A DNA stretch of 64,000 nt, taken from the NCBI GenBank assembly GCA_965224105.1, contig CBDCYH010000002.1, positions 900,150-964,149 of the forward strand, given 5' to 3'. Positions 6,853 through 52,750 of this stretch are shown here, in pieces (position 1 is the first letter of the stretch; each line of letters opens with the position of its first letter). The DNA is from Rhodothermales bacterium. GTDB taxonomy: Bacteria > Bacteroidota > Rhodothermia > Rhodothermales > JABDKH01. The notes beneath the pieces are model-generated. The model was not told the DNA's origin and did no database searches. It worked only from the letters and a program-made list of their open reading frames with translations. The position numbers and the translations under genes were made by a program.

Positions 6853-6921
6853 TTTACGACATTGCCAGACGCTCATGATGGACCGCGACGCGTCGACAAA
6901 AGGGTCAGCCACACTAAATAG

Positions 6922-9115: not shown

Positions 9116-9126
9116 TTCAACCAGCC

Positions 9127-9681: not shown

Positions 9682-9695
9682 CAGGCGAAAGCTGC

Positions 9696-10559: not shown

Positions 10560-10565
10560 CCCCAC

Positions 10566-12625: not shown

Positions 12626-13176
12626 CCCTGCTGGCGGACGAACCCGAGCACGAGTTTTGCGTGGGCAAGCACCTCCTCCACCCCGCCTATCCGGTCTAAT
12701 CTTTCCGCTGGGGTGGAATCGAGTCCGGGCACACTAATGCGCCCAATCCACAACAGCATTTTTTCCGACAACACACGTTTGCCGGGAAATTGCCCGGGAG
12801 CAAGGTGGGAAAAATAGAACTCCAGCCGATCTGCCAGGGAGTTGTATGCACCAACAAGATCATCGTTGGATGCACTATCGTCCCCATCCAGTAGGGCGCG
12901 ACCAAGCACGTAATCCCGGTATAAAAATGGCATCTCCGCGGATGCGGCCAACACCGATTGCGCGGATGGATTTCCCGCCAGTCCAAACTCCAACGATCGG
13001 GTGGTGACAACCGCGAGGAGGGCCATCGTCTCTTCCGATATTATCGTATGGTTGGCACCTGGAGTCACATCGGATGCTACAGCGATGAGGTGATTCGAGG
13101 TCGCGATCGCACCGAGCGTTGCGAAAGTCGAAACCTTGTTCAGGCCATCCGGGCCGGGTACAGGCGGTTTTTCCAA
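12622..13176 (-). CDS. Hypothetical protein (184 aa) immediately downstream of moaC
   Basis: Open frame 1 nt after the moaC stop and overlapping the corC stop by 4 nt. No recognisable motif. Confidence 0.35.
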   Translation of the reverse strand: MEKPPVPGPDGLNKVSTFATLGAIATSNHLIAVASDVTPGANHTIISEETMALLAVVTTRSLEFGLAGNPSAQSVLAASAEMPFLYRDYVLGRALLDGDDSASNDDLVGAYNSLADRLEFYFSHLAPGQFPGKRVLSEKMLLWIGRISVPGLDSTPAERLDRIGGVEEVLAHAKLVLGFVRQQG

Positions 13177-13177
13177 C

Positions 13178-13672
13178 CTAGTCGGATTCGGGTTTCAAAT
13201 AATCCCCGCTCTGTCCGCCAGTTTTGGCACGGAGGTGGATGTCGGTTATCTGAATCCCCTTCGAAATGCTTTTGCACATATCGTATATCGTAAGCGCGGC
13301 GATAGATACGGCAGTAAGCGCCTCCATCTCCACACCGGTCGGGCCAACGCTTTTCGCGAACGCGCGAATTTCCACGGCAGACATTTCTTCGACAAGCGTA
13401 AGCTCGATATCCACTCCCTTCAATGAAACATCGTGGCACAGCGGCACGAGCTTGCTCGTTTGTTTTGCACCCATGATGCCCGCGATCTGAGCTGTTGCAA
13501 GAACGTCTCCCTTCGCGATGGAGTTTTCAGATACGCGGTCGAAGGCTTCTTTACCCAGCAACACCCTTCCCGCCGCGACTGCCGTTCGCACACTCGACGG
13601 CTTATCGGTCACGTCAACCATTTTGACATTTCCATATTCATCAACGTGTGTGAGGAATGATGAATCGGACAT
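13178..13672 (-). CDS. moaC: Cyclic pyranopterin monophosphate synthase MoaC
   Basis: 164 aa. KLVPLCH and the MoaC fold signature. Confidence 0.93.
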   Translation of the reverse strand: MSDSSFLTHVDEYGNVKMVDVTDKPSSVRTAVAAGRVLLGKEAFDRVSENSIAKGDVLATAQIAGIMGAKQTSKLVPLCHDVSLKGVDIELTLVEEMSAVEIRAFAKSVGPTGVEMEALTAVSIAALTIYDMCKSISKGIQITDIHLRAKTGGQSGDYLKPESD

Positions 13673-16145: not shown

Positions 16146-16178
16146 AAAGCCGCTCGATTCCACGGGCGGCTTTTTTTA
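16146..16178. terminator. Bidirectional rho-independent terminator between convergent rpsU (+) and the 2-oxoglutarate dehydrogenase gene (-)
   Basis: AAGCCGC-N12-GCGGCTT perfect 7-bp stem followed by TTTTTTT. An A-rich tract precedes it on the other strand. Confidence 0.6.
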
Positions 16179-19100
16179 TGCCAGGACCTCGTCAAGGATC
16201 GCCTGTTGCTGCAGTTGGTGTACCTTTGCGCTTCCTGTCGACGGACTCGCACTTGCATCTCGCCCCACATACCGCAGCTGCTTGGCGCCCGGCGCATCGG
16301 CCATCAGCCGTTCAATCCTCGGCGCAATGAATGTCCAAGCGCCCATATTCTTGGGCTCTTCCTGTAGCCACAGAACCTCAGACGCGTTGGCGTAACGCTG
16401 CAGCTCCGGCCCGACCTCATCCGACGGGAAAGGATAGAACTGCTCTATCCGAGTAATGGCAATTTCCGCCCGCAGGTCTTCGCTCTCCTCCATTCGCGCA
16501 AGCAGATCGAAATAGACCTTGCCGCTGCAGAAGACAAGCTTACGCGCTCGCGCCGGATCAGCCGTAGCGGGTATCATTCTTTGTACGGATCCAGCTACCA
16601 ATTCGCTAACAGGCGACACAGCCATTGGATGACGAAGCAAACTCTTTGGTGACATTACGACCAGCGGCTTGCGATTTCCGCGCATCATCTGCCGGCGTAG
16701 TGCATGGAAAAAATTGGCCGGTGACGTAAACGTGCAAACCGACATGTTGCCCTGGGCGCAGAGCTGCAGGAAGCGTTCGAGTCTTGCAGAGGAATGCTCT
16801 GGCCCCTGGCCCTCGTATCCATGCGGCAACAACAATACGAGACCGCTCTTCTGCCCCCACTTTTCTTCAGCCGCCGACATGAACTGGTCAAAGATTATTT
16901 GCGCTCCGTTGGCGAAGTCACCAAACTGTGCCTCCCACAGGACCAAAGTGTTAGGTGCCGCTACAGAGTAGCCGTACTCAAACCCACACGCGGCGTACTC
17001 CGACAGGAAGCTGTCATAGATAAGTAATGTGCCCTGCTCCTCCTGGATATGATTCAGCGGGATGTAGTCATCTCCTGTTGATTGGTCGACCAGTACACCG
17101 TGTCGATGGCTGAACGTACCCCGCTGTGAATCCTGTCCGGCAAGTCTAACGTTTTTCCCGTCAACGAGAAGTGAACCGTACGCAAGCGCCTCGGCCAATC
17201 CCCAGTCAACAATCTGCTTTTCCTTGTACAGGTTCTTGCGTCGCTCAAATTGGCGCACAAGCTTTTTGTGGATCCCGAAATCATCAGGCCACGAAACTAA
17301 TGCATCCAGGACCCGGTCGAGTCCTGACTCCGGAACGCCGGTATCGATCGAGCCAAAGGATTCCACTTCTTTGGAGCTCTCTGGTAGAGTGACGGTTTTC
17401 TCCGCATCCCTCTCGGCAATCTCCTTTGTTTCGTCGAATGCCTCCTGTAGTCGCGCTCGATAATCATCCAGCATCTTCTCCGCCTCCTCGAGACTCATCT
17501 CGCCGCGGGCAAGCAGCGCCTCGGTATAGAGTTTACGAACGGACCTTTTCGCTTCGATCTTTTCGTACAACAGTGGTTGTGTGTACGTCGGTTCGTCGCC
17601 CTCATTATGACCGTGGACCCGGTAACACAGCATGTCGATAACAACATCCTTGTCATACTCCTGTCGATAGTCGAACGCCATCCTCGCCACGCGAACGCAG
17701 GCCTCCGGATCGTCGCCGTTAACATGAAATATCGGCGCCTGAATCATGCGCGCAACATCCGTAGCGTACGTTGAGCTCCGCGCCTCTTCAGGTGTTGTGG
17801 TAAAGCCAATCTGGTTATTTATCACTACGTGGATGGTACCGCCCGTATGATAACCTGGCAGCTGGCTCAGATTAAGAGTCTCTGCAACCACCCCCTGGCC
17901 GGCAAAGGCAGCATCACCGTGAATGAGCAACGGCATCACCGCATCCCACGAATCAATTTCGTTCTCCTGCTCGCCCCGATCCATGCGCGTGCGCTGCTTC
18001 GCCCGGACCATCCCTTCGACCACAGGGTTGACTGCCTCGAGATGACTTGGATTGGACGCGAGCGTAATAGCCACCTCATTGCCTTCCGCGGAAACGTGGC
18101 TTCCCTCGAATCCCAGGTGGTACTTCACATCACCCGAGCCCTGCGTAGTATTGGGGTCGAGGCTTCCCTCGAACTCAGAGAAGATCACTTCGTACGGCTT
18201 GTGCAAAATATTGGCCAGCACGTTCAGCCGCCCGCGGTGGGCCATCCCGATCACCACCTCTTCTACCTTTCCATCTGCGGCACTCGACAGGATCGTGTCA
18301 ACCAATGGGATGACGGTCTCGGCACCTTCGAGTGAAAACCTTTTGTGGCCGATGTACTTGGTGTGTAGGAAGCGTTCAAAAGCCTCGGCGGCATTCATGT
18401 TGGAGAGAATTCTGCGCTTTTCTTCTGGCGGAAGCTCCTCGCTCGACCGGACGGGTTCAATACGCTCCTGCAACCACCGCTTTTCTTCTGGTGATGAGAT
18501 GTGCATGTACTCCACACCAATTTTCCTGGTGTAGGTATCGCGGATCACTTCCAGAATGTCTCTAAGCGGAAGCAGTGAGTCCATCCCACCGAGACCGCCT
18601 GTGTCAAACTCGCGGTCGAGGTCCCAGATGGTAAGCCCGTACGACGCCGGGTCCAGCTCCGGATGGTATTCCCACACGTGGCCCAGCGGGTTGACGTCTG
18701 CCTGAAGGTGTCCGCGAACACGATAGGCCCTGATAAGCTGCAGCACCCGGGCCTGCTTGTGGATCATCTCCTGATCCGAAGTCAACGCGGATCCGCCAAT
18801 CGCCGGCGTATTGTCAATTGCCAAACGATACGGCTGGTGTGGAATTCCCAACTCCGCGAACAACGTGTCGTAGAAGGTTTCCTTGCCGAGCAGGAGGTTG
18901 GTAACGTATGCCAGGAATGCTCCACTCTGCGCACCCTGGATAACGCGGTGATCGTATGTCGACGTGAGCGTCATCACCTGGGATATGCCGGTCTTGCTCA
19001 CAACTTCCGGCGGGAAGGCGTGATATTCCGGCGGATAACCGATCGACCCAACACCCACAATTAAGCCCTGTCCCTGCATTAGTCGCGGCACACTTAGCGA

Positions 19101-19856
19101 CGTGCCGATCATGCCCGGGTTGGTGAGGGAGACAGTCGTTCCTGTAAAATCAGATAGTTCGAGCTTGCTATCCCGAGCGCGCTTGACGAGGTCGTTGTAG
19201 ACACCAATGAATTGCGGAAAAGTCAGGTTGCCGCAGTCTTTGATGTTCGGTACAAGTAGAGTGCGTTTACCGCGGCGCTCGATATCGATTGCGATGCCCA
19301 TATTGATTCCGCCGGGCGTAACGTGTTCGAGGTTCTCACCCGACCGGCGGAAGTACGAATTCATGTTTGGGACTTCGAGCAGCCCTTTCACCACTGCCCA
19401 TCCGATGAGGTGCGTGTAGGAAACTTTGTCGCCACCGATGTTGCGCTGAAAATCGTTAATCAGCTTCCGGTTTTCCGCCATCAGTTTGACGGGGAAGGCT
19501 CTAACGGATGTTGCGGTAGGGACCTCGAGGCTGGCCTCCATGTTCTCCGCGATCTTTCCCGAAGGCCCGCGAAGCACTTTTACGTCTTCGGGTTCGCCCG
19601 GGGGCGCGGCCTCTGTTACGGCACCGTCTCCTCCCCGCACCTTGTCGTCCGCAGCAACCACTGCAACTGCATCGGATGTTTTTACGGCGGGCGCAACCGA
19701 CGGCGTGTTCTGCTTGCGCGCCTCTTCGGCTGCAGTGAACGATTCGGTCGGGGTATAATCAGCAAAGAAGTCCTGCCAGCTCTCGCTGACGCTCTTCGGA
19801 TCATCCAAATACTGCCGGTACAGTTCCTCTATATAGCCGGTGTTAAATCCTAACAT
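16176..19856 (-). CDS. sucA: Multifunctional 2-oxoglutarate dehydrogenase, OdhA/Kgd type: SucA N-terminus + lipoyl-less E2 catalytic domain + E1 ThDP domains
   Basis: 1226 aa. N-terminus MLGFNTGYIEELYRQYLDDP (SucA). Residues about 100-330 carry an acyltransferase catalytic domain with the DHRxxxG active site (TYDHRVIQGAQSGAFL). E1, transketolase-like and C-terminal OGDH domains follow. Confidence 0.9.
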   Translation of the reverse strand: MLGFNTGYIEELYRQYLDDPKSVSESWQDFFADYTPTESFTAAEEARKQNTPSVAPAVKTSDAVAVVAADDKVRGGDGAVTEAAPPGEPEDVKVLRGPSGKIAENMEASLEVPTATSVRAFPVKLMAENRKLINDFQRNIGGDKVSYTHLIGWAVVKGLLEVPNMNSYFRRSGENLEHVTPGGINMGIAIDIERRGKRTLLVPNIKDCGNLTFPQFIGVYNDLVKRARDSKLELSDFTGTTVSLTNPGMIGTSLSVPRLMQGQGLIVGVGSIGYPPEYHAFPPEVVSKTGISQVMTLTSTYDHRVIQGAQSGAFLAYVTNLLLGKETFYDTLFAELGIPHQPYRLAIDNTPAIGGSALTSDQEMIHKQARVLQLIRAYRVRGHLQADVNPLGHVWEYHPELDPASYGLTIWDLDREFDTGGLGGMDSLLPLRDILEVIRDTYTRKIGVEYMHISSPEEKRWLQERIEPVRSSEELPPEEKRRILSNMNAAEAFERFLHTKYIGHKRFSLEGAETVIPLVDTILSSAADGKVEEVVIGMAHRGRLNVLANILHKPYEVIFSEFEGSLDPNTTQGSGDVKYHLGFEGSHVSAEGNEVAITLASNPSHLEAVNPVVEGMVRAKQRTRMDRGEQENEIDSWDAVMPLLIHGDAAFAGQGVVAETLNLSQLPGYHTGGTIHVVINNQIGFTTTPEEARSSTYATDVARMIQAPIFHVNGDDPEACVRVARMAFDYRQEYDKDVVIDMLCYRVHGHNEGDEPTYTQPLLYEKIEAKRSVRKLYTEALLARGEMSLEEAEKMLDDYRARLQEAFDETKEIAERDAEKTVTLPESSKEVESFGSIDTGVPESGLDRVLDALVSWPDDFGIHKKLVRQFERRKNLYKEKQIVDWGLAEALAYGSLLVDGKNVRLAGQDSQRGTFSHRHGVLVDQSTGDDYIPLNHIQEEQGTLLIYDSFLSEYAACGFEYGYSVAAPNTLVLWEAQFGDFANGAQIIFDQFMSAAEEKWGQKSGLVLLLPHGYEGQGPEHSSARLERFLQLCAQGNMSVCTFTSPANFFHALRRQMMRGNRKPLVVMSPKSLLRHPMAVSPVSELVAGSVQRMIPATADPARARKLVFCSGKVYFDLLARMEESEDLRAEIAITRIEQFYPFPSDEVGPELQRYANASEVLWLQEEPKNMGAWTFIAPRIERLMADAPGAKQLRYVGRDASASPSTGSAKVHQLQQQAILDEVLA

Positions 19857-22384: not shown

Positions 22385-24790
22385 TTAGAATGCGTGTCCG
22401 ATGCCAAAGTGAATTGTCGGTTTCGAGAGTCCATCGGGGAAGAGGCCACTCTCGGTGCGACTTGGATCATACCCCTTGTATGCAAAATCCAGACGAGCAA
22501 TGAAGTACTCCCACGCGATGCGAAGACCGACTCCAGTTCCTACCCCGATCTCTTTGTAGGCAGTTCCAAACCGAAATCGCCCAGACGGATCATCTGGATC
22601 GTCTTGCTGGAAACCAGGGTTTCGTGGGCCGAACCAGATGTTGCCTGCGTCCGCGAACGTAGCGAAAATCCACTCCGCCGCCAAGACGTTTCTGAAGATA
22701 CTTGACCGCAGCTCGGCGCTCGTCTCAATCTTAATGTCACCTCCAAGAATGTTCGCCTGCTCCAGAGCCGTAGTTTCGGAAAGAAGATCAATCGAGCCGG
22801 GCCCGAGCTCACCCAAGCTCCATCCTCGTACACTGAACGCGCCACCACTAAAGAATCGCCGGTCAAACGGAACGAGACGTGATCGACCGGTGGGATGAGA
22901 GTATCCCGCGAACGCTTTCCATGCCACGACATTCCACGAATTTAATGGTCGGTACGATCGATAGTCGCCCACAAACCGAACATACGGTCTGTAGTTAAGT
23001 CGACTTGTGTTGCCGCCAAAGAATGGGAGCCCCGGCAAGCTCTGCTCGATTGTCCCCGGCGAGAATACGGCGCGGTCCAGTAGCGATGGTACCGTCCCTC
23101 CAATTTCCGCCACCGATTCTCTCGAGTAACCGGTTTTCCTGCTTAGCGGATTCACCGTTACTGACCGCAGCGTGTATCGGAACGCATTGTTGACCTGCGG
23201 CTTCGTATAGTCCTCTATTATCTGGGCACGTTGGACAGGATCTCCCTCGATCGAGGACAGCAGCGGATCCAGAAATGTCTGACCAAATCCTTCGAGCGTG
23301 TCGGGATTGCTCACGCTGATGTCCACCAGATCCACCAACGACGAAACTGTTGGTGAGTGTTGCATATTTAGTCGGAGACGCATGTTGCCCCTGCCGCGGA
23401 CAATCAGCTTAAGCTCGTCACGTCGCGCAGTCAGGAGGGTGAGCGACCACCGCGCTGACGAATTATACAGACCCAGCCTGTCATCCAATCCGCCGAAAGG
23501 CCAGACCATGTACGGATACTGCAACGATGTGGAGACCTCGACCTGGGACGAAGTGAACAATCGGAAATCTGAATCCGCCGCTATCGATCCGGCCAATCGC
23601 AGTTGGAAAGCCTCGCCGGCTCCGAGCAGATTCGCATTGCGATACGACACCCCGACTCCGGTACCTAGCTCAGTATCGGCTCCCCCGATTACACCCCCTC
23701 GCTGTAACATAAATGTCTCGAACCGAACGCGGTGCCTGGACCGCGTTGCAAGCCGGATCTTGTGCGCAAGGTACAGCGATGTGTTGATCGTATCGACTCG
23801 TTGTGGATCAATGCTCGTATACAGAAAAGCGCCCGTCGCTTCCAGTCGTTTCTTTGTGTCGATGACGCGGGAATAATTGTACAGCTCGCCAGGCGAAAAT
23901 CGCGTAGTCCTTTCGAGCAGCGATGTCTTTAGTCTGCTATCGCCGGAAAAACTCGCAACAACCTCGCCGGCATCCGAATTATCCATCGTCTCGATGCGTT
24001 CTTCCGTCTCCGACTCAGGTCCCGAAACCTGGTATTCCGTCGAGCCAAAGTAATACTGCCTCCCCGGCCGGATGCGGAAATCGACATCGAACGAATCACT
24101 GCCTACCGGGATGATGACCGCCTGAATAGAATCCCGGTTAACCGACGCGTAACCGTTGTTGCGAAGGATCGAGAGCACCCGCGTCCTCTCACGTACCAGT
24201 TTCGGCTCGGAATAGCGTTCACCCTCAATTACTGGCGCACCCGCCCGTTCCTCCGGTTCTGTGATTTCCGCGCGCAAATCCTCGGTGATGTTATCGAGCC
24301 CCCCGTGCGTAAGCGTCCGCACGAACGTCGGCCGACCGGCCTGTATTACGAACGCAACTTCCACCCAGCGAGAATCAGACACCTCCCGAATGTCATACTC
24401 AACCGAAACCTGTCTGAATCCTTCCTGCAGGTAAAACTGGATGAGGCGCTCGCGATCAATCTCGAGATCCGAATGCAGCAAGTATGCCGGCGGTTCACCA
24501 CTCTTGCTGAGCGCCTTCCCGATCCGGCCATTGTCATTCAGGCGGTAAAGCCACAACCACCACCTGAAACCGGGAAGGCCGAGCAGCTCCCTGTTGGGGC
24601 GTGACCGGATACGCAGTAGTAGTTCGAGTGACGAGAACACTTTCTCACCCTCGAACGAAATCTCGCCGATTAGTTTTGTCGAATCAGCCGGAAAACCCGG
24701 AGTGGTCTGGGCAATAACCGATTCCTTCACGCAACTGCAAATCGCAATCGTCAGGAAGAACGTCCGTAAGAGTGCGCGTGCGGAAAACAC
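22385..24790 (-). CDS. Omp85-family outer-membrane protein (BamA/TamA-like; POTRA region + C-terminal beta-barrel)
   Basis: 801 aa. Signal peptide. C-terminal surface-antigen barrel ending ...HFGIGHAF (terminal aromatic). GxDxG-like barrel motifs. Confidence 0.78.
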   Translation of the reverse strand: MFSARALLRTFFLTIAICSCVKESVIAQTTPGFPADSTKLIGEISFEGEKVFSSLELLLRIRSRPNRELLGLPGFRWWLWLYRLNDNGRIGKALSKSGEPPAYLLHSDLEIDRERLIQFYLQEGFRQVSVEYDIREVSDSRWVEVAFVIQAGRPTFVRTLTHGGLDNITEDLRAEITEPEERAGAPVIEGERYSEPKLVRERTRVLSILRNNGYASVNRDSIQAVIIPVGSDSFDVDFRIRPGRQYYFGSTEYQVSGPESETEERIETMDNSDAGEVVASFSGDSRLKTSLLERTTRFSPGELYNYSRVIDTKKRLEATGAFLYTSIDPQRVDTINTSLYLAHKIRLATRSRHRVRFETFMLQRGGVIGGADTELGTGVGVSYRNANLLGAGEAFQLRLAGSIAADSDFRLFTSSQVEVSTSLQYPYMVWPFGGLDDRLGLYNSSARWSLTLLTARRDELKLIVRGRGNMRLRLNMQHSPTVSSLVDLVDISVSNPDTLEGFGQTFLDPLLSSIEGDPVQRAQIIEDYTKPQVNNAFRYTLRSVTVNPLSRKTGYSRESVAEIGGTVPSLLDRAVFSPGTIEQSLPGLPFFGGNTSRLNYRPYVRFVGDYRSYRPLNSWNVVAWKAFAGYSHPTGRSRLVPFDRRFFSGGAFSVRGWSLGELGPGSIDLLSETTALEQANILGGDIKIETSAELRSSIFRNVLAAEWIFATFADAGNIWFGPRNPGFQQDDPDDPSGRFRFGTAYKEIGVGTGVGLRIAWEYFIARLDFAYKGYDPSRTESGLFPDGLSKPTIHFGIGHAF

Positions 24791-42154: not shown

Positions 42155-42685
42155 TTACGCTGCACGCGCCCTGCCCCTGTTGCTGTCTTGCGTTAGAGAC
42201 ATTAAGAGCGGGGGAGCTTCATCGACCGTCGCAACCAACTCGTATCGATGAAGCATTTCCCCGGAACGACGGAGCCGCACCGTCGTCGTAGTCGCGCCGA
42301 CTCGCGCGAACAACTCAGGATGCCTGATAAGCAGCACCTCGATAATAGCGTCCAAATGGTATGCAACGTCCAGTGCTCCGATCTCGTAAAACGAATGCAC
42401 CAAACGCGTGGGATGCGTTGCAAAATCCGTCGCATCTACCGCCCGGAACGCCCCTCGCTGGATCGAGATTGCAACACCTCCACCAATACCCATCAGAAAC
42501 AAATCAATATTTACACGGCCATGCGCTGTGGGCAACGGCAAGTTGGACTCTATTATTACCCCTTCAGCGAGCATTCCGGACAACTCCGCTGCCAGGATGT
42601 CTATCCCCGGACTTACTTGCCCACATACAGGAATACCATTTGGATCGAGCGTACTTTGAGTGGTGCTTACGAGTAAATTTTTCAT
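42155..42685 (-). CDS. Hypothetical protein
   Basis: Open frame with good coding composition. No motif recognised. Confidence 0.35.
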   Translation of the reverse strand: MKNLLVSTTQSTLDPNGIPVCGQVSPGIDILAAELSGMLAEGVIIESNLPLPTAHGRVNIDLFLMGIGGGVAISIQRGAFRAVDATDFATHPTRLVHSFYEIGALDVAYHLDAIIEVLLIRHPELFARVGATTTTVRLRRSGEMLHRYELVATVDEAPPLLMSLTQDSNRGRARAA

Positions 42686-42851
42686 GGCAGTGAGTCGTTT
42701 AGTAGTGAGGCGTCTTAGCATACTTTGATTGCGTATATCCCAATCTATACCCCAGGGGTGACAACTGAGTGTCATACCCTGGAATCATTTTTTTGAGGGC
42801 CGTATCAGCCGATTTCCTGTTCAGCAACCAAGCCAATCAACATCTTTCTCC

Positions 42852-45785
42852 GTGCTTCGTAACCGCCTCCTGCCTTTCCTTCTCGCATTATTGCTGTGCA
42901 TTCCCGTTCGCGCATGGGGACAGGGTTACTCTTCGTTCAATGGCCGGAACCATCCGGAGCTGAAATGGCAGTTTGTGGAGTCCGAACACTTTCGGATCAT
43001 GTTCCCACAACGAATTGCCGGGATCGAAAACCAGGCTGCGCAGATTGCTGAGGAGTCCTACGAGGCTCTCAGCAAAAACCTCGACGTAACATTTGATCGG
43101 AAAATCCGCATTTACCTCTCAGACGAGGACGAGATAACCAATGGATTCGCGGTTCCCATCCAAAGCGGGCACACCAACATTTGGGTGAACCTCAACGACG
43201 CGCTCAACAGCTGGACCGGCGAGGAAAAATGGATGCGCAAGGTCATCGCCCACGAGCTCGGTCACATCTTTCATTACCGCGCAATCCGCTCCAACATTCA
43301 CCCAATCGACTTCGCAATCTCAAACCCGATCCCCAGCTTTTGGGCAGAGGGACTCGCCCAGTACCAGACCGAAAAATGGGATGCATTCCGGGGCGACCGT
43401 TGGCTCAGAACCGCAGTCCTGGATGACAAACTCTCGTACAACGATGGCCGCTCATCCTGGAACGGCCGGCTCCTGTATTCCGTCGGCAACTCGCAGCTTC
43501 GATATTTTGCCGACCGCTTCGGCGACTCCACCCTCACCGCCCTGCTAAAGCACCGTGAACCGGCTCTCCTCGGCCTCGCCAAGGTGCACAACTTCGAGTC
43601 GGCCTTCGAAGCTGTGACCGACATGAAGTACCCCGAATTCTATGACGACTGGAGAAGGCACATCAATATCTACTACAATTCCATCGCGTCACAAATGGAG
43701 AATGCAGATTCTCTCCGCGCGGATGAGGTAAATCTCCCCGGCCAATATTTGTACGACGTCAAGATCTCCCCCGACTCAAGCAAGGTAGCGATTGTCGCTC
43801 TCACCAGCCTCAACCGGCCGGTGCGCAGGTTATACATTCTCGACACGCACACAGAGGAGACTATCATAGCGGCCGAAGGAAATATCCGCGTGCCCGTGGC
43901 GTGGAGTCCCGACAGCAGGCGGGTGTTTTATGCGAGCCAGGTGCGAAGTCAGCATGGTTCGTTGTTAAACGACGTGTTTGTCTATGATGTGCCAACGAAG
44001 ACCGACCTACGCCTAACCACCGGCAGGCGCGCGAATTTCCCCACGGCAAGCCCCGATGGCCTGCAGATTGCATACGCCGCAACCAATGGTCCAACCACAA
44101 ACATCTACACCGCGCAACTCTCCAACCTGCAAGAGAAACAGGTGACACGCTACAGCGGGGACGTACAGATAGGCCATCTCGCATGGAGCCCTAACGGCTC
44201 AAGCATAGCATACTCTCTTTTTGATCAGGCCGGAGAGCGCACCATTCAGACGGTCGATGTAAGGTCGCTGCAAACAAGAGCGATCACCGGTGGGCAACAC
44301 GATGACCGGCAGCCGACCTGGTCACCGTCTGGAGACCGCATCGCTTTCACGTCATATCGGGACGGCGTTCCAAACGTGTTCACCATGCGGGTGGACACGG
44401 TGGATTCGGTCAAGCGAGTTACCAATCTGGTCACTGGTGCGACTATTCACGACTGGTTGCCCGGCGGAGTGGAGCACACTCGCGGACTGCTCGCCGTTAT
44501 CGTTGGTGAAAGTAAAACATCCGATACTGCTTACCTGGTGGACGCGGCGCGCGTGCCATACACCAGAGAGATCCAACTGCCAGCCCAGTATGACAGATGG
44601 ACACGGGTGGCTCCGGAGCAAACGATCCCGTCGTTCGTGCATCGACCAGATGTCAAGATATCTGCTCCCAAACGGTATCGATCTGTAAGCAACATTTCGC
44701 ATGTCTTTTCGCTACCGTTCCCTTACTACGGAACGGCTGAAAATTGGGGGATCGGCGGAGTAACTTCCTGGACTGAGCCCTTATCACGTCACTCGATTTT
44801 TGCTGGAGGACTGTTTAGCATACCGAAGCCAGCGAACTCGACCCTGTACATCGCTTACGTTAACAACACACTTGCGCCTTCTATACAAACCGAGGTTAGC
44901 TACATCCCGGGAGCGGCGCGACCCTACGAAAACACCATCCTGGAAGAAAGAGCTTCTCAGGCTGAGGTAAAAATTCGCTGGCCTATCAGTTCGGGAATCA
45001 GCCCCTACCGGCAAACCTATTTTTCTGTACGCTCCCGATTCCTGAATGTTGACATTCGCAATCCGGAGGACTTCATTGATCAAGATTCCGGACTGCCGGT
45101 CCCGGAGTCGGGAGAGCAGTATGACCTGCGCGTTTCGTTCACCCGAAAGTTTCAGCGTCCGTACCGCTTCAATGTTGTGCATCCTCTTGACGGCTCCGGC
45201 ATCCGGGTTCGACTGTCGGGAGGATTTTTGCGTACTGATGAGAATCGAAGATTCGTCCAGCTGGATCTGAGCGCATACCGCATCTTCCCGGCGCTGGGCC
45301 TAAACCGGATTTTGGTTTATTCGCGTATGCAGACGCAGAGGGGTCGTGGTCTAGCCCAGAATTTCCAGGGCCTGTCGCGATACGATGCCCTGCAAATACA
45401 CTCGCCGAATTTTGTTCAGGCAGAATTTTCCAATTCGGAACGCGTTCGTGGCTACCGGTCCTTCGCTTTGGGCCAAACGGTTGTATTTGGTTCGTTGGAA
45501 TACCGGATTCCAGTGGTTCCAAGCCTCAGAACAACACTTTTGGGCTCGGTATCCCTTGGCAGCACGAGCCTGGCTCTTTTCGCCGATGGAGGCCTGGTTT
45601 TTGATGATGTAGATTACGGAGACGCGATCAAGAGACTGGGCGTGGGAATGGAACTCAAGAATGAACTCCGACTGGGGAGCAACATCCGCTTTATGCACGC
45701 CGTTGGTATTGCCGGACCCGCGAACGACCTCGGCAGAGATACGTACGATCTCTACTACCGGATTCGCACTACCCTCCCGTTCTAA
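42852..45785 (+). CDS. Chimeric outer-membrane protein: signal peptide + HExxH zinc-metallopeptidase-like domain + PD40/TolB beta-propeller repeats + C-terminal Omp85 (surface antigen D15) beta-barrel
   Basis: 977 aa. IAHELGHIFHY. Repeated WSPDS / SPDGLQIAYAA / WSPNGSSIAYS / WSPSGDRIAFTS blades. C-terminal VRGY...SLEYRIP...LFADGG...TLPF resembles the end of the BamA barrel, with a terminal Phe. Confidence 0.7.
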   Translation: MLRNRLLPFLLALLLCIPVRAWGQGYSSFNGRNHPELKWQFVESEHFRIMFPQRIAGIENQAAQIAEESYEALSKNLDVTFDRKIRIYLSDEDEITNGFAVPIQSGHTNIWVNLNDALNSWTGEEKWMRKVIAHELGHIFHYRAIRSNIHPIDFAISNPIPSFWAEGLAQYQTEKWDAFRGDRWLRTAVLDDKLSYNDGRSSWNGRLLYSVGNSQLRYFADRFGDSTLTALLKHREPALLGLAKVHNFESAFEAVTDMKYPEFYDDWRRHINIYYNSIASQMENADSLRADEVNLPGQYLYDVKISPDSSKVAIVALTSLNRPVRRLYILDTHTEETIIAAEGNIRVPVAWSPDSRRVFYASQVRSQHGSLLNDVFVYDVPTKTDLRLTTGRRANFPTASPDGLQIAYAATNGPTTNIYTAQLSNLQEKQVTRYSGDVQIGHLAWSPNGSSIAYSLFDQAGERTIQTVDVRSLQTRAITGGQHDDRQPTWSPSGDRIAFTSYRDGVPNVFTMRVDTVDSVKRVTNLVTGATIHDWLPGGVEHTRGLLAVIVGESKTSDTAYLVDAARVPYTREIQLPAQYDRWTRVAPEQTIPSFVHRPDVKISAPKRYRSVSNISHVFSLPFPYYGTAENWGIGGVTSWTEPLSRHSIFAGGLFSIPKPANSTLYIAYVNNTLAPSIQTEVSYIPGAARPYENTILEERASQAEVKIRWPISSGISPYRQTYFSVRSRFLNVDIRNPEDFIDQDSGLPVPESGEQYDLRVSFTRKFQRPYRFNVVHPLDGSGIRVRLSGGFLRTDENRRFVQLDLSAYRIFPALGLNRILVYSRMQTQRGRGLAQNFQGLSRYDALQIHSPNFVQAEFSNSERVRGYRSFALGQTVVFGSLEYRIPVVPSLRTTLLGSVSLGSTSLALFADGGLVFDDVDYGDAIKRLGVGMELKNELRLGSNIRFMHAVGIAGPANDLGRDTYDLYYRIRTTLPF

Positions 45786-45816
45786 AATCGATTGCCATCA
45801 GACGTGGCATTCTGGC

Positions 45817-48800
45817 ATGGCCGAAGTAACATCCGATAACAAAATAGTCGAACAGTCCGATACGGACGCTCGAGCATCCGCCACGAACGGATCGGCGTCT
45901 CCCCAACAAACGCTCCTCGCAATTTCCACGGAGATGTCGGATGAGGTTGCGCGCTTTCGCAGTGTGTGGAGCGAGGAGGTCGACACAAAAATTCGCACAC
46001 CTCTGAAAGAGCTTTTTCAAAATGCTCTGCTGGCGCACGCTGATCACCGCGCTGAACTGTATAACACCACATCAGACAATTTCACCATTGCGGCGCTGGA
46101 CAACTATATCACCGGGACTCGCGCAGATGTGTTGCAGCCAATATTCTCCTTCTTCTCTGAAAAGAATTGCGCGGATGTGGTGGGAGATGCGTTTGCCTCC
46201 GGCTTGGAGGTAGTTAAAACTCTAGAGGGGCGATATCCATCTGAAATTGTCGTGGACGAGACGCCGGATATTTTTCGCCCCGCACCTTCGGACAGCTGGT
46301 CCACATTCTTTAGAAAACGAGCGGCACGGTTAAAGCGGATGTTTGGTGGCAGCAAGCGTCGCGTCCGCCGCGTACCGATCTTCGCGATTACGCAATACCA
46401 CCTCCATCGACGATTACCCATTATCGCCTCACCCCTCCACGATGATTTGCAAGAGTCGCTGGCAAATATCGTTGGCCTTGTCGAATCAACGGCGTCGCAC
46501 TGGATCCACGACACACTCGCAAGCACCCGACAGGTGCGCAGGCGAATGTTGTCGCAAGAGTCAGCGGACAACCCTGAGGGAACGGAGGAGCAGGAGGAGC
46601 CCAACCACCCCGCTGCCGATGTTTTCGAATCAGGCGAGGCATTTCAAAACAGATTGCTGCAGCTGGTCGATCTGTGTGAGCAGATAAGAGCTGAATCGGA
46701 TAAGGTCACTGTTAAATTCGACATGGCGCAAAGCCTGTTTGATACCGATCTGCGAGATGGCGGCACGTTCCTGCTTCCCTTGTCGGATCGCCGCCTCCGC
46801 AAGGGTGAGTATCAGGCTGGTGAGATTCTTAATTCGAAACGCGAAACCTGGCACGCTTGGCATTCGGCAGCGCAAGATCGATTCAAACTCCTGGATCGCC
46901 TTCTCGCTCTGCGCGCCACAGTGTACCAGCTGGCCAGGCGTGTCCTGGATAGAATCGACCGGACGTCGCTCCAACCTGCGCACCGCGCTTTTGCCAAGAT
47001 CCGTGAGGGAATTGTCGCATCGAAAACGGAGATCGAATCAGCTAAAGAAACCGCGACGATTGAATCCCTCCAGGAACTCATCACCGGGCAACACAAAAAG
47101 TTGACACGACTATTTGATCGGGCAATTGCGAGCCTGCCGGGTTTGGTATCGCGAGAAAATGCACTAACCGAACCTGGAAAAGAAGAGTGGAAAGCGTTTT
47201 CTCGTTTTGTTGACACCTTGCCCGAAAAGTTGGTCGTCCACCCGCTCAAGGAGGATCATCAAATGGTTGACCCGCTCTTATGGGAGCGGGAGATAGAATT
47301 CCAGCATGGCGTACGGGGTGTTGTCTTTGATTCGATTGCCGCGCCGCTAAGGCAGAGCGCTTCGAAGTTGCAGCAGGGCCTGGTTCGGGCGTGGACTGAA
47401 TTCGAACAGGTTCGACACATCTCGCTGTTTAATCTTGAAGCTGCAGCAGCGGAGCTGTCGGGCGAGAATATCGATGAGGAGGTGGAGGCCGGAGAATCCG
47501 AAGAACCCGTTGACAACTTTACCGCGGGTTACGAGCTGGCGGTTGTCGGGGCCGATCGAGCAGTGGCCGCGCTCGACGAGCTGGTACAAAAACTGGAAAA
47601 CCCGTGGCGTGAGTTTTCGAACACGGTGGATAAGGAGTTCTTCGAGGAGTGGAACGCGATTCACATCCGCGTGCGCACTCTGGACCAGTCATCTGGCCGG
47701 ATGGCCGACCTCAACACCAGGATTGATCGACTCCGTGAACGTTCTCTTGCAAACCTTCGGGCGGGCTGGGCCGAGACCAAACTCAGGTGGGCCGTTACGG
47801 CACGAGCGGTTACCAGGAGAATCAATCGGCTCATCCGCAAGGGTCGAACCGCGGTGGGTGCCGTTAAGGACGACCAGGCTTTGCGTGCCCAAACGGTCGA
47901 GGCCATTTCCAGCGTCGTTGAGTTTAAAAGCACGCTACCGCTCGTTTACAGACGATTGTTTTCTTTTGATGCGCTTGAAGATTCTTCCTTGCTGGAAGGC
48001 AGGAGCGAAGACATTGACTGGGCCCGCAATCACTACGAGCGCTGGCAAACAGGTCACCACGTTGGATTGGCGGTTGTTGTCGGGATGCCAGGTTCGGGAC
48101 GGACAAGTTTTCTGAACGCACTTGCGTCAACTACCTTTGAGGATGTCGTTGTTCACAAACTTACACTGAGCCATCGGATTGAGGACGAGGCGACACTGAT
48201 TCGCGCCCTGACCGAAACGGCAGAGCTATCGGGCGACATTTCTACTTTTGCCGAGCTTGAAAACGCGCTGCAAACTCTTGCTGGTGACTTGCGGCCGATA
48301 TATCTCATCGACAATGTCGAGCATCTGATGCTGAACTGCGCCCGCGGTCGGGAGCTCATTGAGGAGTTTCTGCTCTTCTTGTCCCGATCAGACACGCGTA
48401 TCTGTTGGATCATGTCCATCGCAGCGCCTGCCTGGAAGTATCTACGTAAGACTGCACCGGCTGCTGCTGGGTTTGTCGTCTCCCGACATCTCGATGATCT
48501 TGGGAAGTTTGACTACGAATCCCTGATAATGAACCGGCACAGACGAAGTGGCATGCCCGTTCATTTTCTGGAGCCGGCAACGTCTACGGCCCTTGCCCGC
48601 CAACGCCTACGCAAAGCCTCTACGGACGAGGAAAAGCAGGAGATCCTGCGCGAGAATTATTTCGACCGGTTAAGCAAACTGTGTGGGCAAAATGTAATGC
48701 TCGGCTTATTCTACTGGCTGAGGTCAGCGGATTTTGAAGCGGACGCGGGCGTACTTACCGTCAAGCCGATAGTACCCTTATACTTCGATTTCCTGAACAA

Positions 48801-49080
48801 GATGGAGCAGCCGTTGGCCTTCACGCTTCGCGCTATGCTTGTTCACAACACGTTGAACGTCGAGGAGCACAACAAAATTTTCCGGTTGGGTTCGGACGAG
48901 ACCACGTTTATCCTGGACACGCTACTGAATGGAGGGTTGGTGCACGCATCTGATATTGCGTTGGATCGGACCAAAGCCACCGACAGAAATTTCTTTGATC
49001 CCACGAAGCGCTACCGCATTCACCCACTGGTGATCCACAACATCGTGCAGTTCTTGAGGGGGCGGAATATTCTGCACTAG
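45817..49080 (+). CDS. Large (about 1087 aa) P-loop NTPase of unknown function: long alpha-helical N-terminal region plus an AAA_16/STAND-like ATPase module
   Basis: Walker A VVVGMPGSGRTS. Walker B-like IYLIDNVEH about 95 aa later. Start taken at the ATG at 45817 to avoid overlapping the upstream gene. Confidence 0.6.
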   Translation: MAEVTSDNKIVEQSDTDARASATNGSASPQQTLLAISTEMSDEVARFRSVWSEEVDTKIRTPLKELFQNALLAHADHRAELYNTTSDNFTIAALDNYITGTRADVLQPIFSFFSEKNCADVVGDAFASGLEVVKTLEGRYPSEIVVDETPDIFRPAPSDSWSTFFRKRAARLKRMFGGSKRRVRRVPIFAITQYHLHRRLPIIASPLHDDLQESLANIVGLVESTASHWIHDTLASTRQVRRRMLSQESADNPEGTEEQEEPNHPAADVFESGEAFQNRLLQLVDLCEQIRAESDKVTVKFDMAQSLFDTDLRDGGTFLLPLSDRRLRKGEYQAGEILNSKRETWHAWHSAAQDRFKLLDRLLALRATVYQLARRVLDRIDRTSLQPAHRAFAKIREGIVASKTEIESAKETATIESLQELITGQHKKLTRLFDRAIASLPGLVSRENALTEPGKEEWKAFSRFVDTLPEKLVVHPLKEDHQMVDPLLWEREIEFQHGVRGVVFDSIAAPLRQSASKLQQGLVRAWTEFEQVRHISLFNLEAAAAELSGENIDEEVEAGESEEPVDNFTAGYELAVVGADRAVAALDELVQKLENPWREFSNTVDKEFFEEWNAIHIRVRTLDQSSGRMADLNTRIDRLRERSLANLRAGWAETKLRWAVTARAVTRRINRLIRKGRTAVGAVKDDQALRAQTVEAISSVVEFKSTLPLVYRRLFSFDALEDSSLLEGRSEDIDWARNHYERWQTGHHVGLAVVVGMPGSGRTSFLNALASTTFEDVVVHKLTLSHRIEDEATLIRALTETAELSGDISTFAELENALQTLAGDLRPIYLIDNVEHLMLNCARGRELIEEFLLFLSRSDTRICWIMSIAAPAWKYLRKTAPAAAGFVVSRHLDDLGKFDYESLIMNRHRRSGMPVHFLEPATSTALARQRLRKASTDEEKQEILRENYFDRLSKLCGQNVMLGLFYWLRSADFEADAGVLTVKPIVPLYFDFLNKMEQPLAFTLRAMLVHNTLNVEEHNKIFRLGSDETTFILDTLLNGGLVHASDIALDRTKATDRNFFDPTKRYRIHPLVIHNIVQFLRGRNILH

Positions 49081-49651: not shown

Positions 49652-50491
49652 TCAGCCGATATGCATCTGTAGCTCTTCGCGACGGTGCTTCTGGCGGAGT
49701 TTGCGTAGCGCCTTTTCCTTTATCTGCCGTACGCGTTCGCGTGTGAGGCCGAACCGCTGTCCTATTTCCTCCAGCGTAAGAGGATGCTCACGGCCGATTC
49801 CAAAGTACAGCCGTGTGATCTCCGCTTCCCGGGGATGCAGCAGGCTTAGTGCACGCTCAATGTCGATCTTTAGCGATTCATCCATGAGCGTCTCATCCGG
49901 CGAAAGATCTTCGTCGTTGGGAAGCACATCGAGAAGGCTGTTGTCGTCATCTTCGTTGAACGGAGCGTCCATCGAAAGGTGACGGCCGGTGTGCTGCATT
50001 GCCTCTCTCACCTTGCCCACGTCTACTTCGAGCTCCTTGGCGAGCTCCTCAATGTTGGGCTGCCTTTCGTGGACCTGAGACAACTTCGCACTCGTCTTCC
50101 TGATTTTCGAAATGGTCCCGATTCTGTTAAGCGGCAACCGCACGACGCGGCTCTGCTCGGCGAGGGCCTGCAGAATCGCCTGACGAATCCACCAGACCGC
50201 GTACGAGATGAACTTGAAACCTCTCGTCTCATCAAAACGCTGGGCGGCTTTAATAAGACCGTAGTTTCCTTCATTGATCAGGTCGGCCAGAGTTAAACCC
50301 TGACCCTGATACTTCTTCGCAACCGATACCACAAATCGCAGGTTTGCGCGTGTGAGCCGGTGAAGGGCATCTTGATCGTTCTGTTTTATTCTGCGCGCAA
50401 GCTCAACTTCCTCAGCAGGTGTGAGGAGGGGGATCTGACCAATCTCCTGGAGATACTGGTCAAGCATACGTTGCTGGCGAGGGACGTACAT
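49652..50491 (-). CDS. rpoD: Primary sigma-70 factor (short Bacteroidota-type RpoD/SigA; regions 1.2-4)
   Basis: 279 aa. Regions 2.4 and 4.2 are highly conserved. Confidence 0.92.
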
Positions 50492-51910: not shown

Positions 51911-52750
51911 ATGACCATCTTTCAATGGGTCATACCGATACGACTTCAGGATATCGCCGAGATACTCATCTTCGCGTACATCCTTTACAAGTTGTACACG
52001 TTCATGCGGGGCACCATCGCCGTACAAATCTTTCTCGGTCTCATGGCGCTCCTTGTTGCACAGCTCGTCGTATCCGCCCTCGACATGACGATGCTTGGTT
52101 CGCTGTTCGGCATCATTGGAGAAGTCTTCGTCCTCGCCATCATCATTCTTTTTCAGCCGGAAATTAGACGACTGCTACTTGTGTTGGGGCAGAACCCTCT
52201 CATACGAAGGTTTGTCCCACCCAGCGCTCATTCGCAACTCATCGACAATGTGGTTGAAGCAGTCGACGAGCTGAGCGCGAACCGCACCGGCGGACTAATT
52301 GCATTCGAACGTGGAATCGGTCTTCGCAACTACATCGAAACAGGCGTATCCATACAGGCGAAAGTCACCAAGGAGCTCCTGATTGCAATGTTCTATTCGC
52401 AAAGCCCTCTACATGACGGAGCGGTGATTATCCGAAACAAAAGAATTGCTTCAGCCAGAAGTATCCTCCCCGTCTCTGCCAACATGAAGCTCAGTCCGCA
52501 CCTTGGACTCCGGCATCGAAGCGCGGTAGGTCTCTCGGAAGTAACCGATGCCTTCGTGATCACTATATCAGAAGAAACCGGCCAGATCTCCGTGGCCGAC
52601 GCCGGAAATTTGCGAACCGGATTGTCTCTACCACAACTGCATGACCTCCTGTCCGACGCGCTAAGTCCTAACGAAGAGCAGCACGTCGATGAAAATAGTT
52701 CAATGGAACTCCCTATCTTGGAATCTCAGGCAGCCATCTCCGAAGCTTGA
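51911..52750 (+). CDS. cdaA: Diadenylate cyclase CdaA/DacA (c-di-AMP synthase)
   Basis: 279 aa. Three N-terminal TM helices. DisA_N domain with the DGA (LHDGAVII) and RHR motifs. Confidence 0.9.
   Translation: MTIFQWVIPIRLQDIAEILIFAYILYKLYTFMRGTIAVQIFLGLMALLVAQLVVSALDMTMLGSLFGIIGEVFVLAIIILFQPEIRRLLLVLGQNPLIRRFVPPSAHSQLIDNVVEAVDELSANRTGGLIAFERGIGLRNYIETGVSIQAKVTKELLIAMFYSQSPLHDGAVIIRNKRIASARSILPVSANMKLSPHLGLRHRSAVGLSEVTDAFVITISEETGQISVADAGNLRTGLSLPQLHDLLSDALSPNEEQHVDENSSMELPILESQAAISEA

Follow-up and report, generated by a model that had tools for sequence, protein, structure and literature searches.

A WD40-Omp85 gene and the gene of a putative channel-linked pseudo-ATPase adjoin in a Rhodothermales chromosome

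Here we describe two adjacent open reading frames (ORFs), ORF1 and ORF2, in a 64,000-nucleotide stretch of DNA from a Rhodothermales bacterium (contig CBDCYH010000002.1 of GenBank assembly GCA_965224105.1, positions 900,150 to 964,149 of the forward strand), which is referred to below as the window. ORF1 encodes an outer-membrane protein that belongs to the WD40-Omp85 subfamily, and ORF2 encodes a cytoplasmic protein of an uncharacterised family whose members usually follow directly behind the gene of an MscS-like channel. The initial annotation of this region had taken the pairing of the two genes as a sign of an envelope-associated system. Our analysis makes it likely that ORF1 and the channel-linked pseudo-ATPase ORF2 are instead two independent genes of the Rhodothermales chromosome, between which a channel gene has been lost, and not parts of one system.

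Comparison of gene order in related genomes carries this reading. In the loci L022 (GCA_013002165.1) and L023, a gene of ~200 amino acids (aa) on the minus strand is followed by the ORF1 homologue, an MscS-like gene of 372-416 aa, the ORF2 homologue, a 279-aa sigma-70 gene and a GH3 gene (both on the minus strand), folP, cdaA and PCMT. The window is collinear with both loci, with identities of 98% for the sigma-70 protein, 52% for folP, 63-71% for cdaA, 62-66% for PCMT, 48-49% for ORF1 and 33% for ORF2, but it differs from them in that the channel gene is absent and a glyoxalase gene replaces GH3. No MscS-family sequence was found in the 64-kb window, either by tblastn with six partner channels or by a six-frame profile search. 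Likewise, no MscS-like sequence was found in the metagenomic locus L001, the closest relative, where the ORF1 and ORF2 homologues are also adjacent. The ORF2 of the window has no channel gene upstream and is thus an orphan at this locus. The simplest history compatible with these sequences is that the channel gene was lost in the common ancestor of the window organism and L001, so that the adjacency of ORF1 and ORF2 across 31 bp would result from the loss of an intervening gene from a collinear Rhodothermales block.

Away from this block, the two genes are found separately. An ORF2 homologue is present in only one of 14 species-representative loci that contain an ORF1 homologue, and the remaining 13, which come from Balneolaceae, Cyclonatronaceae, Rhodohalobacter and other Rhodothermales, have neither an ORF2-family gene nor a channel gene of the dedicated (A4) type in their flanks. 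In the opposite direction, an ORF1 homologue lies upstream in only two of the 29 channel loci with enough upstream flank; in the other 27, outside the clade of the window, the channel/ORF2 pair occurs without it, as is also the case in L017-L021, L024 and L025. An ORF1 homologue (P0007) and an ORF2 relative (P0273, near that of L017), both named as Rhodocaloribacter and encoded on contigs of unequal length, hint that the genes are unlinked there as well.

These distributions bear on the possibility that ORF1 and ORF2 form one envelope system, in which a protease-transporter of the surface or outer membrane is controlled by a cytoplasmic NTPase and which may ancestrally have had three parts, the third being an MscS-like inner-membrane lipoprotein channel. 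The two genes do lie on the same strand, exactly 31 bp apart as first annotated, with no terminator-like signal above chance between them, and the pair is kept in L001, while the order ORF1-mscS-like-ORF2 is seen in L002, L022, L023 and L046. The partner channels, moreover, have an N-terminal signal or lipobox-like sequence followed by ~100 extracytoplasmic residues. However, all loci with this order fall in a single order-level clade and at least eight flanking genes are collinear in them too, and therefore shared ancestry explains the gene order. A cytoplasmic protein, in addition, would have no direct route to a protein of the outer membrane. Together with the counts given above, these points lead us to consider a single system very improbable, and the comparison indicates that the pairing is clade-level synteny combined with a deletion rather than a conserved two-gene system. 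Tight same-strand adjacency can evidently arise by deletion of an intervening gene, and synteny should be compared before a 'system' is deduced from it.

Some observations nevertheless weigh against the reading of two independent genes. The order ORF1-(mscS-like)-ORF2, with or without the channel gene, recurs in the window, L001, L002, L022, L023 and L046, and the terminator-free spacer leaves room for co-transcription and possibly for a lineage-specific functional link. The score of the window ORF1 with the Omp85 barrel family PF01103 is 0.1 bit under the curated cut-off. Furthermore, what is said below about the topology and mechanism of both proteins is based on predicted structures and analogy, and the partnership of the ORF2 family with the channel is deduced from gene context.

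The features of both genes are listed in Table 1. ORF1 has a GTG start, and its translation ends with the residues TTLPF before the stop codon. ORF2 has an ATG start, which is best placed at 45817, since the alignment with the L001 orthologue begins at residue 1 and nearly all of 34 homologues share Met1; this supports the start that had been put up for testing with the first gene call, and with it the predicted length of 1087 aa. An alternative ATG at 45661 was rejected, as it would overlap 125 nt of conserved ORF1 coding sequence and finds no support among the homologues. A scan of the spacer for promoters and terminators gave nothing above shuffled expectation. The spacer contains an inverted repeat, TGCCA-N7-TGGCA (45793-45809), a weak terminator-like hairpin for the minus strand, of a kind that is no commoner than in shuffled sequence.

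Table 1. Coordinates of ORF1, ORF2, the spacer between them and the features assigned within the two proteins (positions in the window).
Feature	Position	Strand	Description or basis
ORF1	42852..45785	+	WD40-Omp85 subfamily outer-membrane protein, 977 aa; stop included
Signal peptide, residues 1-22, VLRNRLLPFLLALLLCIPVRAW	42852..42917	+	hydrophobic segment; disordered in AlphaFold2 (AF2) model
Divergent clan-MA (gluzincin, M1-like) zinc-peptidase domain, residues ~32-290	42945..43721	+	profile matches, AF2 model
Predicted zinc site H134-E135-x-x-H138 (+ H141), E166 in FWAEGLAQY	43251..43349	+	invariant residues
TolB/PD40-type beta-propeller, ~six blades, residues ~295-565	43734..44546	+	profiles, Foldseek, AF2 (~23 strands)
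16-stranded Omp85 barrel, residues 616-977, terminal Phe	44697..45782	+	PF01103, AF2, Foldseek
Omp85 loop-6 motif RVRGY, residues 864-868	45441..45455	+	in long loop 832-875, between model strands 11 and 12
Omp85 FxDxG motif (FADGG), residues 910-914	45579..45593	+	family conservation
Spacer ORF1/ORF2	45786..45816	.	site where relatives have mscS-like gene
ORF2	45817..49080	+	1087-aa cytoplasmic protein, uncharacterised family usually directly behind MscS-like channel gene
Long-helix region, residues ~29-715, single helices up to 113 residues	45901..47961	+	AF2 secondary structure
AAA+ core, AAA_22/Orc1-Cdc6/TnsC type, residues ~745-895	48049..48501	+	
Degenerate Walker A GMPGSGRTS, Arg762 for Lys	48082..48108	+	family alignment
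Walker B-like YLIDNVEH, D832 kept, Asn for catalytic Glu	48301..48324	+	family alignment
Lid + winged-helix-like C-terminal region, residues 896-1087	48502..49077	+	AF2 secondary structure, Foldseek

The family of ORF2 is large. An exhaustive HMMER search gave 1687 representatives at E <= 1e-3, of which 457 reach E <= 1e-30, each representative standing for one of ~1700 clusters at 50% identity. The best-scoring relatives are mostly full-length (members of the family have ~1000-1150 aa) and are 23-35% identical to ORF2. Word-indexed searches, with the single sequence or with a profile of 34 sequences, had returned only ORF2 itself, one orthologue and one fusion protein, and it was the exhaustive search that revealed the family. 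Gene context was sampled in 10 + 36 loci out of the ~1700 clusters. In all ten ORF2 loci whose context was readable (L002 and L017-L025), the gene directly upstream, on the same strand, is MscS-like and encodes the MscS beta-domain (PF00924), and the stop of the channel gene and the start of the ORF2 homologue usually overlap (for example, 6883-8001 and 8001-11234 in L022). The neighbourhoods are otherwise unrelated and include genes for Complex I, aspartyl-tRNA synthetase, pyruvate dehydrogenase, two-component systems and IS elements. Identity among the partner channels is 50-65%, much higher than among the ORF2 relatives, and they score well under the curated cut-offs of the named MscS, MscK and MscM models.

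The association holds in the reverse direction as well. A metagenome scan with an alignment of the ten partner channels was made, in which loci with at least 600 nt downstream of the channel gene were counted. A match to the ORF2-family HMM lies directly downstream in 35 of the 36 channel loci, and the family N-terminal motif can be recognised by eye in the 36th. A metagenome locus search with ORF2 alone as the query had found nothing, and the channel alignment succeeded. Among 31 loci of more distant MscS paralogues, none has an ORF2-family gene downstream. In the metagenome protein P0123 (ENA, 1493 aa), a Na_H_Exchanger domain (PF00999, residues 55-449) is fused to an ORF2-like region (residues 599-1468, hhalign E 4.8e-34), which suggests that the ORF2 family acts at the cytoplasmic face of membrane transport proteins. 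The Walker A of this fusion is canonical (GVGKS), which is true of hardly any free-standing member of the family.

Two loci show further features around the channel/ORF2 pair. In L002, two MscS-family genes lie between the ORF1 and ORF2 homologues: the one at 8885-9820 (minus strand) is a complete, canonical-looking MscS, and the one at 9923-11026 (plus strand) is the dedicated partner that overlaps the start of the ORF2 homologue. In L017, where the ORF2 homologue shares at least 90% identity with a protein named by NCBI as Rhodocaloribacter sp. and no ORF1 homologue is nearby, the pair is followed on the opposite strand by a 724-aa POTRA-bearing Omp85 protein (11403-13577, minus strand) and a BrkB-family gene.

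No copy of the ORF2 family was found in 72,556 plasmids and 50,697 phage genomes, and PADLOC gave only faint matches. The sequence record thus describes the ORF2 family and its MscS-like channel as a housekeeping module that appears to be vertically inherited, and neither mobile nor linked to defence. KefC-KefF is a transporter system with a translationally coupled cytoplasmic ancillary subunit. The ORF2 family resembles this arrangement, as it is encoded behind an MscS-like gene, often overlapping it, and as one relative is fused to a CPA-type exchanger. The window is unlike both KefC-KefF and the channel/ORF2 loci in that the channel gene itself is absent. In the literature searched, which is not the whole literature, no giant AAA+-like partner of an MscS channel was found, and to our knowledge textbook accounts of how MscS-type channels are regulated do not include dedicated partner proteins in the cytoplasm. 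The family is thus large and nameless, has no Pfam model for two-thirds of its length and no literature that we could find, and is almost obligately coupled to one MscS-like subfamily. The channel/ORF2 pair offers a directly testable hypothesis on the regulation of MscS-type channels, and this module of an MscS-like protein and a pseudo-ATPase, undescribed in the literature searched, is the interesting lead from the region.

The loss of the channel gene does not appear to have been followed by decay of ORF2. The window and L001 each have an uninterrupted frame of more than 1080 codons, although 42% of the residues differ between the two. Between these two sequences dN is 0.36 and dS is saturated (>2 where computable), because of which a dN/dS ratio could not be computed. 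Conservation rises along the protein, with a dN of 0.70 at its N-terminal and of 0.18 at its AAA+ end, and the window ORF2 retains the near-invariant residues of the family, namely G759, G761, T763, S764, R787, E835, W864 and the RHRRSG motif. The ratio of ORF2 identity to ORF1 identity is 0.58-0.70 between the window and other genomes, and 0.53-0.60 among the genomes that bear the partner. It could be argued that ORF2 is here a decaying relic whose function was lost when the channel was deleted, because its otherwise obligate upstream partner is absent from both the window and L001 and because ORF2 evolves fastest in the block (in comparison with L022 and L023 its protein is 33% identical, that of ORF1 48-49% and the sigma factor 98%). 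However, the open frame in two such divergent lineages, the low dN in the face of saturated dS, the gradient of conservation, the kept family residues and a divergence relative to ORF1 that is no greater than between partner-keeping genomes make a relic very unlikely. A pseudogene was rejected on the same grounds, the frames being intact and constrained. As far as the sequence can tell, ORF2 still functions, since it has remained intact and constrained after the loss of the channel, and it presumably acts with a partner encoded elsewhere in the genome.

A check of hydrophobicity revealed no signal peptide or transmembrane segment in ORF2. The AF2 model has a pLDDT of 84.3 and a pTM of 0.53, the latter a usual value for an elongated protein of several domains. 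Residues 29-715 are nearly all helical in this model, in agreement with the helical character first assigned to the protein, and this region gave only compositional helical-bundle matches in Pfam and among PDB sequences. It is the fastest-evolving part of ORF2, with dN falling from 0.70 to 0.26 along its length. The protein does not end in the Walker motifs, as had been supposed, but continues for ~190 residues with a lid and a winged-helix-like domain after the ATPase module. AAA_22 is the only Pfam family recognised (E 4e-7, 30.8 bits against a cut-off of 27), and the best structural matches in Foldseek are Cdc6, Orc1 and TnsC, with alignments of ~420 columns to Cdc6 and Orc1. Both the fold and the profile therefore identify an AAA+ protein. 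In residues ~745-1087 ORF2 resembles Orc1/Cdc6, TnsC/MuB and AAA_22 proteins in having an AAA+ core, a lid and a winged-helix-like end, but it is unlike Orc1/Cdc6/TnsC in its 700-residue helical N-terminal region and in that its partner gene encodes a membrane channel and not a component of DNA transactions.

The ATPase motifs are degenerate throughout the family. The P-loop sequences of the initial annotation, GMPGSGRTS and LIDNVEH, were located in ORF2, but the Walker A carries an Arg in place of the canonical Lys, and neither GxxxxGK[ST] nor hhhhDE is matched (GSGRTS and IDNVEH, respectively). Among 151 family members the position of the Walker A Lys is occupied by R in 76, H in 18, L in 15, V in 13, A in 7, K in 5, I in 5 and M in 3, while the surrounding G-x-G-x-T-S is near-invariant. 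Position 832 is D or E in 147 of the 151, and position 833, that of the catalytic Glu, is N in 57, H in 33, R in 18, D in 17, G in 16, Q in 6 and E in a single member. E835 is present in 147 and H836 in 124. In the RH(R)RSG motif (48535-48552), R907, H908, R910, S911 and G912 are kept in 138-150 of the 151 members, and R787 and W864 are also nearly invariant. As both the Lys of Walker A and the catalytic Glu of Walker B have been lost, ORF2 is probably a non-hydrolysing pseudo-ATPase, in which the AAA+ fold would be kept for structure or ligand binding. With these residues lost so systematically, the family illustrates well how an AAA+ fold can be turned to a non-catalytic use.

The initial annotation had placed the NTPase in the AAA_16/STAND type, an identity that does not hold. 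With AAA_16 the score is 20.4 bits against a cut-off of 32.6, nSTAND matches are faint or absent, no repeats follow the ATPase module, and NLR and Avs structures rank under Cdc6 and TnsC. We consider it very unlikely that ORF2 is an active NTPase switch of the STAND/AAA_16 type, or of a defence type like BREX BrxC/BrxF, Avs or PARIS AriA, which senses a signal through its helical region. Besides the AAA_16 score and the best structural matches to Cdc6, Orc1 and TnsC, such a switch is at odds with the retention of the Walker A Lys in only 5 and of the Walker B catalytic Glu in only 1 of the 151 members. It is equally at odds with the vertically conserved housekeeping neighbourhoods (Complex I, AspRS, pyruvate dehydrogenase, sigma-70 and folP), the lack of copies in plasmids and phages, and the lack of a C-terminal repeat sensor domain.

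Members of the ORF2 family would thus be elongated, non-hydrolysing AAA+-like cytoplasmic proteins that are produced in a constant ratio to a dedicated MscS-like channel. They probably serve as a stoichiometric regulatory or scaffolding subunit at the cytoplasmic face of the channel, where they would bind a ligand without hydrolysing it. We propose, tentatively and with some doubt, that the ORF2 family and its dedicated channel are an undescribed two-component device, in which the giant coiled-coil pseudo-AAA+ protein would be docked beneath the cytoplasmic cage of the channel and either gate or tether it. The lineage of the window would then be a natural experiment, in which ORF2 is selected without an adjacent channel gene. 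An Orc/Cdc6/TnsC-like protein might form a ring that matches the heptameric channel. That the WD40-Omp85 protease is a third, envelope-spanning component of the device in Rhodothermales is much less likely.

ORF1, the other gene of the pair, has more than 1100 homologues, which are full-length, share 45-68% identity with it and belong mostly to Rhodothermales; those at 45-50% identity come from Rhodothermales and Rhodothermaceae genomes. Conservation was assessed in an alignment of 35 sequences, with relatives at 44-69% identity. The AF2 model has a pLDDT of 86.9 and a pTM of 0.85. As first annotated, ORF1 has a signal peptide, an HExxH peptidase-like module, a propeller and a 16-strand Omp85 barrel that ends in Phe, all of which are borne out by profiles, the AF2 model and Foldseek. 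The N-terminal VLRNRLLPFLLALLLCIPVRAW is the sole hydrophobic segment of the protein, and Q24 and G25, just past the signal peptide, are invariant.

The peptidase domain consists of a beta-sheet followed by helices in the AF2 model. Peptidase_M48 scores 24.9 bits against a cut-off of 20.3, for part of the model only, and apart from this partial match all peptidase Pfam scores of ORF1 are under the curated cut-offs. Peptidase_MA_2, M61 and M1 are matched weakly in 8-10 of 10 members, and in 21 of 35 members. A profile of the domain had no match among PDB sequences. The predicted zinc site is nevertheless fully conserved: H134, E135, H138, H141, E166, G167, Q170 and Y171 are invariant in all 35 sequences (HELGH at 43251-43265). 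ORF1 is similar to M1-type aminopeptidases (tricorn-interacting factor F3 and aminopeptidase N) and to Peptidase_MA_2 in that HExxH is followed by a Glu in W-x-EG-x-A-x-Y, which we take to resemble the third-ligand motif of M1. The spacer from HExxH to this Glu has 27 residues, compared with 18 in M1 enzymes, and a clear GxMEN exopeptidase motif is absent.

The propeller is recognised by PD40 (E 1e-16), by the TolB model TIGR02800 (2.7e-27) and by DPPIV_N, and Tricorn_N and Tricorn_2nd matches are recorded for the family in Pfam. Its profile matches TolB in the PDB at ~1e-18, TolB structures are the top Foldseek matches, and a profile of whole ORF1 matched only propeller proteins in the PDB. 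The at least four blades first counted become ~six, with ~23 strands in the AF2 model. ORF1 is unlike TolB in that it has neither the TolB N-terminal domain nor a Pal-binding context and is anchored in the membrane by a barrel.

The C-terminal 378 aa of ORF1, taken alone, match PF01103 at E 3.6e-5 with 23.9 bits (cut-off 24) over model positions 56-312 of 325, and 29 of the 35 relatives match it as well, the best at 1.2e-10. By these scores the assignment is marginal for the window ORF1 alone and solid at the level of the family, so that the Omp85 nature of the C-terminus, for which this profile had been named as a check, is upheld. In the AF2 model, residues 616-972 form 16 long strands, and Foldseek matches ORF1 to the BamA chain 8qn4_A at E 1.7e-8. 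No match was found for the barrel alone among PDB sequences. ORF1 shows both of what we take to be the Omp85 signatures, the loop-6 motif (V/I)RG(Y/F) and the strand motif (F/Y)xDxG. R864, V865, R866 and G867 are invariant in all 35 sequences, F910 is present in 35, D912 in 34 and G914 in 29 of them, and the C-terminal Phe is conserved. The absence of POTRA domains that had been proposed is confirmed, as PF07244 matches neither ORF1 nor any of the 35 relatives and in the AF2 model propeller and barrel are joined by no more than a linker that has a single short helix.

This architecture had been said to match no textbook family, but it has been known since 2014, though it is uncharacterised. 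In the classification of Heinz and Lithgow (2014, PMC4104836), the Omp85/TpsB superfamily comprises ten subfamilies, one of which, 'WD40-Omp85', is defined by a TolB-like propeller that replaces POTRA; the name has been reused since (PMC5582053). The WD40-like members listed in PMC4104836 (such as D0MEQ5 and D0MCT8) include Rhodothermus marinus entries, and Table S3 of that study reports BamA/TamA, TolB and aminopeptidase fold hits for them, the 'best aminopeptidase hit' structures being 1z5h, 4kxd, 4fgm and 3qnf. No architectural difference separates ORF1 from this subfamily, as a POTRA-less barrel, a PD40/TolB-like propeller and an aminopeptidase-like domain are present in both, and ORF1 is assigned to it by this architecture and not by alignment to the listed UniProt entries. 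The propeller is treated in PMC4104836 as a 'BamA-BamB fusion', and the peptidase active site, which is invariant in the ORF1 family, is not analysed there. No experimental study of any WD40-Omp85 member was found in the searchable literature. ORF1 is therefore not new in kind, but belongs to a widespread Omp85 subfamily that has a fully conserved zinc site and has been left experimentally untouched for more than ten years after it was named.

Other known systems share only some of these features. Lacking POTRA, ORF1 does not belong with the POTRA-bearing assembly factors BamA, TamA and TamL, and since the window encodes a separate, POTRA-bearing TamL-like Omp85, ORF1 would be an additional paralogue and not the essential assembly factor. 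It resembles prolyl oligopeptidase, DPP-IV and tricorn in having a propeller beside a peptidase domain; however, its peptidase is a zinc gluzincin, while those are serine peptidases. With PlpD of type Vd it has in common an enzyme domain N-terminal to an Omp85-type 16-strand barrel and, in both, a possible self-export of the passenger. PlpD retains a POTRA between passenger and barrel. ORF1, without a POTRA, does not have the passenger-POTRA-barrel order of type Vd proteins, and its passenger would be of ~570 residues, comprising the peptidase and a folded propeller.

It is possible to outline how ORF1 may work. After Sec export, the 16-strand Omp85 barrel would anchor the TolB-like propeller and the M1-like zinc peptidase in the outer membrane. 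Both domains are most likely at the periplasmic face, because the chain should reach the first strand of a barrel with an even number of strands from the periplasmic side, in the way of POTRA domains, and because TolB-type propellers are periplasmic. Surface display by self-translocation, as in type Vd secretion, is the alternative. In the preferred, periplasmic arrangement, the propeller may select, gate or present peptide or protein substrates to the zinc site, by analogy with prolyl oligopeptidase, DPP-IV and tricorn. By this model and analogy, ORF1 is a candidate for an outer-membrane-tethered envelope protease, and its relatives are candidates for such anchored proteases in Rhodothermota and Bacteroidota-like bacteria.

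A relative of ORF1 residues 26-531 that lacks the barrel (23.5% identity) is encoded on the Salinibacter ruber plasmid NZ_CP030365.1 (81418-82968), where it is annotated as a 'basic secretory protein-like protein'. The peptidase-propeller unit thus also exists without an Omp85 anchor. In several loci with an ORF1 homologue (L002, L007, L010, L012 and L015), a gene of 550-790 aa lies directly upstream on the same strand, which in L002 (3526-5895, plus strand) encodes a VIT and von Willebrand A protein; the window has no counterpart of it. In the window, ORF1 is preceded by a divergent ORF of 206 aa (42155-42775, minus strand) without a Pfam or NCBIfam match, whose position is kept in L001 (66% identity) and weakly in L022 (27%).

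The window as a whole is an ordinary chromosomal region with uvrA, uvrB, argS, 2-oxoglutarate dehydrogenase, folP, cdaA, a sigma-70 gene and the TamL-like Omp85. Its GC content is even (52-55%), homologues of its proteins place the organism in Rhodothermales, and tRNA and Rfam scans of the 64 kb gave no matches. The TamL-like protein (801 aa, 22385-24790, minus strand, ~18 kb from ORF1) scores 324 bits with the TamL lipoprotein model NF052279, against a cut-off of 400. The RpoD-like sigma-70 protein (279 aa, 49652-50491, minus strand) is 96-98% identical to the copies in L018, L022 and L023, compared with 33-70% for the other proteins, and thus stands out by its conservation. The gene for the c-di-AMP synthase, cdaA (51911-52750, plus strand), lies ~3 kb past ORF2, and in L018, L022 and L023 there is synteny between it and the channel/ORF2 pair. 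As c-di-AMP controls osmolyte and K+ transport, a link between cdaA and the degenerate P-loop of ORF2 is conceivable by analogy, though it may be mere clade synteny. Finally, the 2-oxoglutarate dehydrogenase E1 of the window (1226 aa, 16176-19856, minus strand) includes a 2-oxoacid acyltransferase (E2 catalytic) domain at residues 97-322, a fused E1/E2 arrangement that presumably resembles the actinobacterial OdhA/Kgd type.

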